A stretch of DNA of 38,396 nt, from the IMG/VR virus record IMGVR_UViG_2675903536_000019. One strand, written 5' to 3'. Each line of letters starts with the position of its first letter. The first letter of the stretch is position 1. This document shows positions 30,001 through 33,000 of the stretch, piece after piece. Source of the stretch: a virus (Duplodnaviria; Heunggongvirae; Uroviricota; Caudoviricetes). Position numbers: made by a program.

Positions 30001-33000
30001 GCGAGGTGATTGATGACCACGCCTTCAGTTTTGCCGCAAAAATTATGGCGTCCGCTTGCAGAGATTAAAAACTTCGTTGAAAAAATGCCTGACGGCGTTC
30101 GCCTTACGGAAGTTACTAAAAAAGTTAAGACATTTGCCGAACTGTCAGGAAAGGAGAGAAACCAGCTCATAGATTTTATCGATAAACGGGAAAGCATCAT
30201 TGTATTTAAGGTCAGAAAAGAAGGTTCTGGTAACGGAGTAACCTTTTTCCGCCACAAAAAATATGGATATCCCAAGCGGGAAGGAAACGTCACAATCATT
30301 AAGGACCTTCAATCAAAATTATGTACCAGATGCGGGCAGACAAAATCAGTCGATGATTTTTATTCAGATGCCAGCAAACGTGACGGGAGAGCCATTTATT
30401 GCAAGAAGTGCGAATCTGCAATGAAACGCTCACGCAGAGAATGCAACAAATTAATTCTGCAACAACAGGAACCTGAAATGAATAACCTAAAAGCAGTTTC
30501 ACCTTCACCAGAAATACTCAGAAAGCAGGCGGAAGAATTGCTGAAAGCCGCCGAAATTGCGGAGAAAAAACGCCAGGAAGATGATGTATTCAACAAAAAA
30601 CTTGCGCCCTTAAAACTTGAAATTCTTCAGGCCGCCGGAAAAATGCAGCTTAAACTGGACGAATTCATCGACTGTATGGATGAAATGAATAAAGCTGTTC
30701 AGAAGCTTAAAGAACTGACCGCCTGATATTAATAAATTGCAACTACCGGAGTTAACTATGAACGAAACAGAACTGAAGCACATTATCGCCCTGCTTCTGG
30801 AAGATGCCAAACAGGTTTATCGACTTAGCCCAAATTCCGCAACGCTGACACGCATCCAGATGGCAGAAAAAGCACTGAAACAGGATAATGAAAACAGCGC
30901 ATCCGAAGTTGATGCTAATGGTGAAAATGAAGTAATAGAAATAAACAGCAATATCAGCGACAGTTGCGTCGCTTACAGCCACCAAATAATTCGTGTAAGC
31001 GCAAGAATAATGGAAGTGATGGCAAGTGAGCTTGAAAAGAACAACATCAAGCCCACTGATTGTTGTTTAAGAACCGTAATGAACGTTATTTATTACTCGA
31101 TGTTCCGAAGTCGCTAACAGCATCGAGTTTTTCATCAAAAAATGATTCAAATGCATCGTAAAATACGGCAATAGCACCGCCCTTATCTACCGCGGCAGGA
31201 ACTGCCTTTTGAGGTATATCTTTCTCCCTGAATTGTGTGTTGTAGGTATCGACAGCCAGCCGCATCAGAAACATCACTTTTTCTTCTTGTGTCATAAATT
31301 CACTCTCCTTACGGGGTTTGTAGTTGAGGAGTTCTCCACGGGTCAGGTGGAGTTCGTGCGCCGGACACGGGTGAGCATCCGGCACTGTCAGTTTACTGAA
31401 CAGATATTACCCTGAAAAGCCAGGGTGCAACACGAAAGCGCACGGCGAAGACTCTTTCCCTTTGAAGGCTTGTCGTTAGATTTCTTCGACCGTGCGCTTC
31501 CGGTTGTGAATAACAACATTGCTGTGTGTAGTCATTGGCGGATATCAGTTTAATTGCTGGCTGATATCCGCCCTTTTTTAAAGTGAATTTTGTGATGCGG
31601 TGAATGCGGCTCAGCGCACGCGGAACAGTTAAACCGACAGGATGTCACGGAAAGTCATCGTCCCCTGACCCGGCGTTAATTGTTAACTGGTTAACGTCAC
31701 CTGGAGGCACCGTCAGTGCGTGACACCTGGCGATTATGTTCTTCATGAAGGGCGGACATATATCGCTTCAGCAAACAATATTGAAAAGAGAAAACTCTAT
31801 ATTCGTAACTTCACGACAAAAACATGCATTACCGATTGCATGATTAAAGTCTTCCTCGGACGTGATGGTTTACCTGTAAAAGCGGAGTCATGGTGATAAA
31901 TGTAAAAATAAAATGTGCCTACCATCTCTGCAATAAGGAAACCGAACAAACCAAATCCGTTAAAAGTCATCTTCATTTTATGAAAGGCACAATCCCCGTA
32001 ACCGAAGAGCGGCAATATTGCAGTAAGCAATGCGCCGAAAATGACCAGATGGCACATGAACTCTAACCCCTCAACTTGATATTCAGACAATTCAGTTTCA
32101 TGCCAGATATAACAGCACCATAGGCCTTAAAAAAAGGACATATAAAGTGAAAGAACTTAATCCTGACCAAATCTTTTCTGAAACCGAAAAGACAGCAGTA
32201 AATGAACTTAATGAAATTGCAAACCGCATCAGTAAAATATGCAAAGAATACAAAATCGACTTTGTATTTTCTTTTTCAGTGCTTACAGAAGTTGGAAATA
32301 ACGAATATAAAGACAGTCGTTTGGTTTCATGTGGGTTAAATGGCAAAACACCAAGCCCATATATTCATGCCGCATGTGAAGTCGTCAGAAGCAACATTGA
32401 AGCACAACAAATCCATGAACTGGCGCTGGCTCTTGAGTTTGCAAGAGAAAATCCTGAGTGCGACTGCCCCGAATGCCAGCACGAAAAGGAAAAAACAACT
32501 AACAAAACAGCAAACCAGGCAACCTTCCACTGAAATAAAAATCCGGCAGCGCAGGCTACCGGATTTCTCCCTGCGTCACCGTATTCGGAGAAATCAGACA
32601 AAGGGCCGCTAATTCTAATCCAGCCAGAGGTTTAAATACAATGAGTGCTGATAAACAGACTTTTGCACTACACTGCGAAGCAAAAAACGATAAAGTCAGA
32701 AAACGCCTTGACATCAAAGGCGGTTTTTTCTGGACCGAGGCCAGAAAACTTTCTGTCGCAGTTTCCCGCTGCATTGCAGCCATGGACGATGCAGGCTACG
32801 ACGAGGATGATTTCAAAAAACCCGTTCGCGTAAATTTCCCCGTCGTGAATGACCTTCCACCGGAAGGCGTGTTTGATACTGAATTCTGCAACCGCTATGA
32901 AAAAGGCGGTAACGATGGCATCACCATGATGGCTATCCCCTTCGATGACAACATCAACGGTGAAGATGCCACAACTGCTGGCGATGACAACGATAACCTG

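Follow-up and report, generated by a model that had tools for sequence, protein, structure and literature searches.

The window analysed here is a stretch of 38,396 nucleotides (nt) taken from the virus record IMGVR_UViG_2675903536_000019 of the IMG/VR database, and the region with which this work is concerned (31086–32090) was found to carry a small RNA (sRNA) of the KilS type upstream of the division-inhibitor gene kil. The DNA around this region is identical to that of Escherichia phage phiSTEC1589-Stx1c and of prophages in the chromosomes of several Escherichia coli that produce Shiga toxin (STEC), its plus strand being the pL operon of a lambdoid prophage of the Shiga toxin (Stx) 1c type. 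In the RefSeq annotation of the corresponding locus of E. coli ST866 (L001), the plus-strand order is a cI-like S24 peptidase, the N antiterminator, hypothetical proteins of 237 and 119 amino acids (aa), kil, a YdaE-family protein, a 128-aa hypothetical protein, RecE, Gam and Bet, and the sole minus-strand gene annotated in that stretch encodes a 69-aa hypothetical protein. The presence of the S24 peptidase, N, kil, recE, gam and bet bears out the assignment of the plus strand to the early-left operon, which had been made in an earlier reading of the sequence (hereafter the original prediction). That reading had also placed here two minus-strand open reading frames (ORFs), each with a ribosome-binding site, of 69 and 86 aa, and between them about 500 bp of non-coding DNA holding the strongest terminator of the window and several dyad symmetries. 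A non-coding gap does exist, but it measures approximately 425 bp (31296–31719) and is filled with conserved RNA elements (Table 1). Taken as a whole, the region is likely to be a small-RNA and division-inhibitor module of the pL operon, with the KilS-type sRNA encoded on the plus strand ahead of kil.

Table 1. Genes and RNA elements of the region, with their positions in the window
Feature	Positions	Strand	Remarks
KilS-type sRNA, orthologue (by homology) of K-12 Rac kilS (b4833)	~31486–31579	plus	~95 nt; 5' end placed by homology, uncertain by ~5 nt
Single-stranded seed region	31505–31536	plus	ARN-type AAUAACAAC (31509–31517) and 16-nt AUUGCUGUGUGUAGUC (31518–31533)
Rho-independent terminator of the sRNA	31537–31579	plus	14-bp stem, 8-nt loop, U6 tail; stem of DicF type
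Conserved hairpin-rich leader	31310–31485	plus	shared with dicF loci; ~84% identity to the region upstream of dicF in Tritos/Qin
STnc100-like structured kil leader, 5' three-quarters	31580–31711	plus	5' arm of closing helix GAUGCGGUG (31594–31602), hairpin 31674–31696, CCUGG arm and AGGCA loop (31700–31709)
Junction of 80-bp deletion	31711/31712		relative to otherwise identical prophages (L001 4013–4092)
kil (FtsZ inhibitor) remnant	31720–31896	plus	C-terminal 58 of 73 codons; NCBIfam NF008465
ydaE-family zinc-binding protein gene	31890–32066	plus	NF041288, PF04181, phrog_1520, PGAP
69-aa ORF	31086–31295	minus	ATG at 31295; PHROG 2605; RefSeq WP_000189936.1
Candidate weak sigma-70 promoter for the 69-aa gene	31390–31418	minus	-35 TTTTCA (31418–31413), 17-nt spacer, -10 TAAACT (31395–31390)
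86-aa ORF	32057–31797	minus	ATG at 32057; judged an antisense shadow of kil and ydaE

The original prediction had suggested that 31400–31800 be inspected for small-RNA signals, and the KilS-type sRNA was found there. It is 82.8% identical over 109 nt to the Rac prophage locus of E. coli K-12 (DH1), and in the RefSeq record of K-12 a non-coding RNA, kilS (b4833, 1418405–1418502), is annotated at the homologous place upstream of kilR. Because it shares both this position upstream of kil and this level of identity to an annotated gene, the element is, as judged by homology, an orthologue of KilS. The distance to the downstream gene is also kept, with kil starting 140–180 nt downstream of the sRNA on the same strand in K-12 and in the relatives of the window. 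This kind of sRNA is already known, kilS having been annotated in K-12 since 2021; the copy in the window is unannotated yet widespread, as a KilS-type copy covering the seed was present in at least 1,842 of 5,426 complete E. coli genomes (about a third), while neither the phage and STEC records examined nor any of the matches listed annotate the sRNA.

The sRNA ends in a hairpin (31537–31572) in which seven of the stem pairs are G-C and which is followed by CTTTTTT. Its stem is the longest of any terminator-like site in the whole window, and in this respect the claim of a strongest terminator held; it lies on the plus strand, however, where it ends the sRNA, and it is unrelated to the minus-strand ORFs. 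The complete sRNA is predicted to fold with a minimum free energy of -35.5 kcal/mol (z -4.87), and the hairpin variants found in relatives preserve the pairing of the terminator stem. With relaxed thresholds, Rfam aligned 31523–31573 to DicF (35.6 bits, E 1e-5, gathering threshold 48) and 31470–31582 to RprA (33.5 bits, gathering threshold 70), in the latter case to the 3' half only.

The K-12 orthologue has been studied experimentally. KilS was predicted from RNA interaction by ligation and sequencing (RIL-seq) and verified by northern blotting (Bar et al., 2021; PMC8175672), being detected in the wild type, absent in Δhfq and accumulating in stationary phase as an RNA of ~98 nt. Its transcripts begin at a transcription start site (TSS) of its own, 1418502, a single RNase E site lies at 1418471, and the RIL-seq partner named for it is yncL (PMC8175672).

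The single-stranded stretch ahead of the terminator proved to be shared with a host sRNA. Its 16-nt AUUGCUGUGUGUAGUC is identical at 16 of 16 positions to RprA nt 60–75 (one match against 0.03 expected by chance), and the local alignment extends over RprA nt 47–79, taking in the AAC-repeat/ARN-like motif. The seed, ACAUUGCUGUGUGUAGUC, is identical between the window and K-12 KilS, and it is the most conserved segment across 17 KilS-type variants, whose hairpins vary. The RNase E site of K-12 KilS corresponds to its nt 32, and the 16-mer starts at nt 33; the equivalent position in the window is 31517. The position of this site mirrors the nt-60 start of truncated RprA. According to Mika et al. 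(2012; PMC3465796), RprA60–105 is a natural truncated form, constitutes the "highly conserved region" and alone suffices to down-regulate csgD. In that work site I of csgD (-119 to -84) pairs with RprA nt 60–97, nt 60–75 being the 3' seed for csgD site Ib and ydaM/dgcM, positions +3 to +37 of ydaM (dgcM) pair with RprA nt 45–75, and a compensatory GCUG/CAGC exchange proves the pairing of RprA (PMC3465796). For the seed in the window, a duplex of 16 contiguous bp with csgD was predicted at -98 to -83, at -27.2 kcal/mol compared with -24.2 kcal/mol for RprA, along with a duplex of 15 contiguous bp across the AUG of dgcM. As an aside on the published probes, northern probe 2 for KilS (AGGACTACACACAGCAATGTCGTTATTTAC; supplementary file 3 of PMC8175672) spans the 16 nt in common with RprA and could cross-hybridise, while probe 1 was aimed at the hairpin and is specific.

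The body of the sRNA is related to a different locus. Its flanks (31315–31497 and 31535–31711) are ~84% identical to the dicF–dicB regions found in phage Tritos and in the Qin prophage of K-12, and the 5' segment of DicF together with ~125 nt upstream is replaced in the window by AAUAACAACAUUGCUGUGUGUAGUCAUU, a replacement that is also seen in K-12 Rac upstream of kilR. Scanning IMG/VR for the conserved box that follows the terminator, AAAGTGAATTTTGTGATG, returned 45 distinct upstream 85-mers (loci L011–L130; L008 1990–2070), and at least six seed types were recognised 5' of this box on a DicF-type terminator, namely DicF (the majority), KilS, CAACAACCCAUGUUGAUUACCUUUUGG, CCAUGUGUAGUCUUUGG, the type of phage POCJ13 and the type of L099. 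Hybrids joining the KilS seed to the DicF hairpin were also seen, and for the seed types other than DicF and KilS no name was come across.

A further scan of one genome per species (596 Gb) was made with the pattern TGCTGTGTGTAGN{2,12}TGGCGG, which was too loose, most of the 120 loci being chance occurrences in unrelated phyla, so that only those from Enterobacterales were used. Within this noisy set, an RprA-like seed UGCUGUGUGUAGUC with a GGCGG-type terminator after it occurred in Citrobacter, Scandinavium, Superficieibacter, Enterobacter, Trabulsiella, Mixta and Serratia; loci with this combination are L141, L151, L153, L172, L176, L189, L197, L204, L215 and L217. For the E. coli locus among them (L141), Rfam recognises an STnc100-like RNA (45 bits) whose 3' end is formed by the seed and hairpin. 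Since this STnc100-like RNA and the other genera carry the seed, the RprA-like seed appears to be in use on another scaffold too, and also outside Escherichia.

If these elements work as their relatives do, RNA polymerase starting at pL, or at a weak promoter nearby, would run into the very strong intrinsic terminator that ends the sRNA. In the repressed prophage the terminator would make the sRNA 3' end, whose stem and U-tail are the usual handle for Hfq, and would insulate the toxic kil downstream; after induction, N-modified polymerase would read through and the sRNA would be excised from the long transcript, as DicF is. Binding to Hfq would be expected from the behaviour of K-12 KilS, and an RNase E cut directly 5' of the seed, which was shown for K-12 KilS, would here give a short form starting at the seed. 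From the seed alone we infer that the phage sRNA may act as a mimic of the RprA seed, repressing csgD, dgcM or other targets of the RprA 3' seed by pairing.

The sRNA is embedded in further structured RNA. The leader upstream of it contains the stems CUCCAC/GUGGAG, GCCGGA/UCCGGC and CCCUG/CAGGG and a long-range pairing AGCGCACGGCGAAG/CUUCGACCGUGCGCU, several of the hairpins being perfectly conserved. RNAalifold predicted 39 pairs for 31310–31485, of which one is compensatory, the sequences being too similar for covariation, and the fold z-score of 31310–31720 is -4.5. Downstream of the terminator, the kil leader resembles the STnc100 family. In the intact relative L001 it was matched by Rfam STnc100 at 30.8 bits (E 6e-5, gathering threshold 47), while in the window itself Rfam STnc100 gave no match to the kil leader. 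A comparison was made of six sequences, comprising three KilS/DicF spacers, the two true STnc100 copies of the window and the STnc100-like locus L141. The 9-bp closing helix GAUGCGGUG/CACCGCAUC and the CCNGG-AGGCA-CCNGG hairpin are kept, six pairs have changed on both sides, and 98.8% of cells are paired as against 30–45% when the partners are slid.

Of the dyad symmetries that had been pointed out, GTTAACTGGTTAAC (gttaac) is present at 31682–31695, where zero occurrences would be expected by chance, as are the conserved hairpins of the leader; all of these belong to the plus-strand RNA, and not to the antisense genes as had been supposed. Within a hairpin CGUUAA…UUAACG (31674–31696) the dyad supplies the loop and the 3' arm; in Rac-type variants this hairpin reads CUGUAA…UUGCAG, a double compensatory change. 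A role of the gttaac dyad as a protein operator was considered and rejected, as relatives change it compensatorily in the register of the RNA hairpin and as it aligns to the STnc100 hairpin.

The two true STnc100 copies lie in tandem on the minus strand (15583–15796 and 15858–16069; Rfam 198 and 139 bits), in the part of the late operon that holds stx1c and a SASA-family esterase (nanS-p-like), and are homologous in their 5' body to the kil/dicB leader. Rfam matches at gathering level were also obtained on the minus strand for sRNA-Xcc1 (20521–20611, 68.6 bits), C4 antisense RNA (21453–21536, 71 bits) and isrK (21562–21635, 54.9 bits).

The window differs from its close relatives at the start of kil. 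The 80-bp deletion takes out the Shine-Dalgarno sequence of kil, its ATG and first 15 codons as well as the 3' arms of the structured leader, and a contiguous deletion junction was found in none of the 5,426 complete E. coli genomes. Judged by what it removes, the deletion inactivates kil. It also brings a GGAGG to 12 nt upstream of an in-frame GTG (31720), and translation of a truncated Kil from this codon is conceivable, if speculative. The remnant itself is well recognisable, matching positions 16–73 of 73 of NF008465 (E 4.6e-35) and positions 29–82 of 83 of phrog_294, and sharing 54 of 58 residues with K-12 KilR.

Both minus-strand frames are open and preceded by ribosome-binding motifs as originally described, but of the two only the 69-aa frame is considered to be a gene. 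An AAGGAG Shine-Dalgarno sequence lies 8 nt upstream of its ATG, the profile phrog_2605 covers residues 1–69 of 69 (E 1.5e-45) and PGAP annotates the protein (WP_000189936.1). The gene is convergent with the plus-strand 119-aa gene, which it overlaps by 32 nt. Only 15 relatives were identified among 5.8 billion proteins, all from Escherichia/Enterobacteriaceae and 46–99% identical, and an exhaustive HMMER search of 1.8 billion representatives gave 15 relatives, all small and unannotated. Relatives of 59% and 46% identity occupy the same site in the same antisense orientation, and members of the family adjoin the non-coding region 5' of kil (L135–L137) or of dicB (L138–L140). The expectation that the minus-strand ORFs be conserved in related prophages thus holds for this frame, which keeps its antisense position in kil-type (L135) and dicB-type (L139) loci whose proteins are 46–60% identical.

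Within the family the first 15 residues (MTQEEKVMFLMRLAV, 31251–31295; 3501–3545 in L135 and L139) are invariant even at 46% overall identity, with synonymous differences only in their codons, while the remainder diverges with the reading frame kept. The conserved DNA block of the sRNA leader continues directly into the 5' end of this ORF, and in dicF loci that lack it (Tritos, Qin) homology ends just before its ribosome-binding site. On this pattern of conservation the 69-aa ORF is a real gene, narrowly distributed. The protein gave no match in Pfam, NCBIfam, PADLOC or PDB sequences, and its AlphaFold2 model is a two-helix hairpin of low confidence (predicted local distance difference test score 64.8), the product being probably a small helical protein. 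The gene is presumably transcribed from its own promoter while pL is repressed. The candidate promoter in Table 1, read from the sequence, scores 8 of 12 and falls under the threshold of the promoter scan, and as its hexamers are also kept in dicF loci without the ORF the assignment is uncertain.

Further upstream on the plus strand, an early-left ORF of 238 aa (30010–30726, phrog_2539) has a central cysteine-rich segment and weak matches to endonuclease VII/HNH and Lar-like restriction-alleviation PHROGs (E 1e-9 to 1e-10).

The original prediction had read the 86-aa frame as a two-pass inner-membrane protein that is made in the lysogen and acts in superinfection exclusion or as a toxin, with the terminator and dyads serving the antisense genes. 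The frame does offer an ATG, a GAGGGG approximately 9 nt upstream of it and two hydrophobic segments, a stop-free run of 82–89 codons persists in this frame in several relatives, and in K-12 Rac a true exclusion gene, sieB, lies antisense and upstream of kilS/kilR, at the place held here by the 69-aa ORF. A hydrophobic appearance is, however, what is expected from antisense translation of codons rich in Lys and Glu, and two recognised genes of the plus strand, the kil remnant and ydaE (NF041288, E 9.8e-26), cover the ORF completely in antisense. No family was found for it in Pfam, PHROG, NCBIfam or PADLOC and it is annotated in none of the records examined. Its ATG is not conserved among relatives, a stop in K-12 Rac removes the first 22 codons, the first hydrophobic segment gains arginines in Rac-SA53, and phages without ydaE (PhiR5_2, POCJ13) also lack the N-terminal two-thirds of the frame. 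Substitutions follow the plus frame, with 284 at its third codon position compared with 136 and 153 elsewhere in the ydaE half of 23 distinct homologous sequences. Over kil, the plus and minus frames share their third codon positions, and the apparent conservation of the minus frame in its C-terminal half is explained by that of Kil. Since the terminator in addition belongs to the opposite strand, the membrane-protein proposal is given next to no chance of being right; the conservation in related prophages that the original prediction had itself asked for is lacking, neither the start codon nor the first hydrophobic segment of the frame being kept in relatives, and the 86-aa ORF is, on this comparison, a shadow ORF and not a gene.

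With the plus-strand sRNA taken as the principal element, its action has to be weighed. A function like that of DicF, blocking division by pairing with ftsZ mRNA and so duplicating the neighbouring kil, is suggested by the same position beside a division-inhibitor gene, by the homologous hairpin and flanks and by DicF being the best Rfam match. It is nevertheless highly improbable, given that this match lies under the gathering threshold and that both the 5' segment and the hairpin loop of DicF are replaced. When whole sRNAs were paired in duplexfold with the initiation region of ftsZ, the energies were large and did not set the sRNA apart from shuffled controls, which speaks for neither side. 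It could also be argued that the hairpin is a tL-type terminator or insulator only, keeping kil silent until antitermination by N, with the RNA a by-product and the RprA-like stretch coincidental or a handle for Hfq and RNase E. The terminator is unusually strong, termination is known to keep kilR of Rac silent, with read-through allowing its expression (OxyS/NusG work; PMC10798246), and the RIL-seq interactions of KilS are few and its sRNA score is low (PMC8175672); the shared stretch, moreover, takes in the RNase E site and the ARN motif, so that the similarity may partly reflect processing or Hfq binding. Set against these points are the Hfq-dependent accumulation of K-12 KilS and its chimeras with mRNAs, a seed conserved more than the hairpin, and an identity of 16 nt with flanking similarity that is far above chance. 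Sister loci also combine this scaffold with other seeds, among them that of DicF, an sRNA proven to act in trans, and in several other genera STnc100-like sRNAs carry the same seed at their 3' end. We consider a role confined to termination unlikely.

A more far-reaching reading is that KilS-type sRNAs are phage-borne mimics of the RprA 3' seed, by which Rac-like and Stx prophages would switch off csgD and dgcM, which regulate curli and biofilm, or would gain access to further targets of RprA, in either case without the envelope-stress signal of the Rcs system, and that they are one of a larger lambdoid set of sRNAs (DicF, KilS, STnc100-like and unnamed seed types) which recombines one terminator/body scaffold with interchangeable seeds. 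This is offered as a tentative proposal, which may be correct but about which we have more doubt than conviction. Several observations weigh against the account of the sRNA given above. The complementarity predicted to csgD and dgcM is not independent evidence, because the seed is shared with RprA; the sole named RIL-seq partner of KilS is yncL and not csgD or dgcM, and the predicted KilS–yncL duplex is no better than those of shuffled seeds; and the Rfam scores for DicF, RprA and STnc100 all lie under their gathering thresholds. In addition, the extended -10 that fits the K-12 KilS TSS (TGTTAAATT, ending 7 nt before it) reads CGTTAGATT in the window, with the TG lost and the hexamer matching at 4 of 6 positions, which makes transcription of its own in the lysogen doubtful, and a promoter scan of the window found no promoter for the sRNA.

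KilS is without an established target, and the shared seed proposes a function for it; the identity is also a concrete example of a prophage copying the seed of a host sRNA. It may be the one point here that is new. In the literature searched no paper was found that notes the identity of the KilS and RprA seeds, and the term "RprA-like" was not found. The KilS paper (PMC8175672), the only one found to contain both KilS and Hfq, mentions neither RprA nor DicF, and the 2026 preprint on Pas/STnc100 by Zhu, Shabalina and Storz makes no mention of KilS, DicF, RprA or kil.

Among known systems the element is closest to K-12 KilS, with which it agrees in strand, in its position upstream of kil/kilR, in its seed and in having an intrinsic terminator that is followed by the same conserved downstream block. 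It differs in that its leader is of the dicF-locus type and not of the Rac type, that its terminator loop is of 8 nt where that of K-12 is longer and the stem bulged, and that the extended -10 of K-12 is not conserved and the downstream kil is truncated at its 5' end; the window also represents an inducible, N-dependent Stx1c phage, whereas Rac of K-12 is a cryptic prophage. With DicF (RF00039) it shares the terminator stem GGCGG.AUCAG…CUGAU.CCGCC, flanking blocks that are ~84% identical and an early-left position upstream of a division inhibitor, which is dicB for DicF and kil here. In contrast to DicF, the 5' segment UUUCUGGUGACGUUUGG is replaced, the hairpin loop is UUUAAUUGCUGG instead of UUUUACUCCGUGA and ~125 nt of the dicF-proximal leader are absent.

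The STnc100/PasD family (RF02076; Zhu, Shabalina and Storz, 2026 preprint) resembles the kil leader in the GGUGAAU motif, the closing helix and the CCNGG-AGGCA-CCNGG hairpin, and some STnc100-like sRNAs of other genera bear the RprA-like seed at their 3' end; here, however, it is the ribosome-binding site of kil that comes after the body, in place of a seed and terminator, and in the window the 3' part of the body is deleted. RprA (RF00034), an Rcs-controlled sRNA of the core genome, and the sRNA of the window are alike in the seed (RprA nt 60–75), in a cleavage point that gives a short active form and in an equal distance from seed to terminator. Unlike RprA, the sRNA of the window has neither the 5' stem-loops nor the anti-site at nt 28–45 for the csgD translation-initiation region, its terminator and genomic location are different, and control of the RcsB type is not expected. 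The likeness to RprA is one of possible mode of action and not of family membership.

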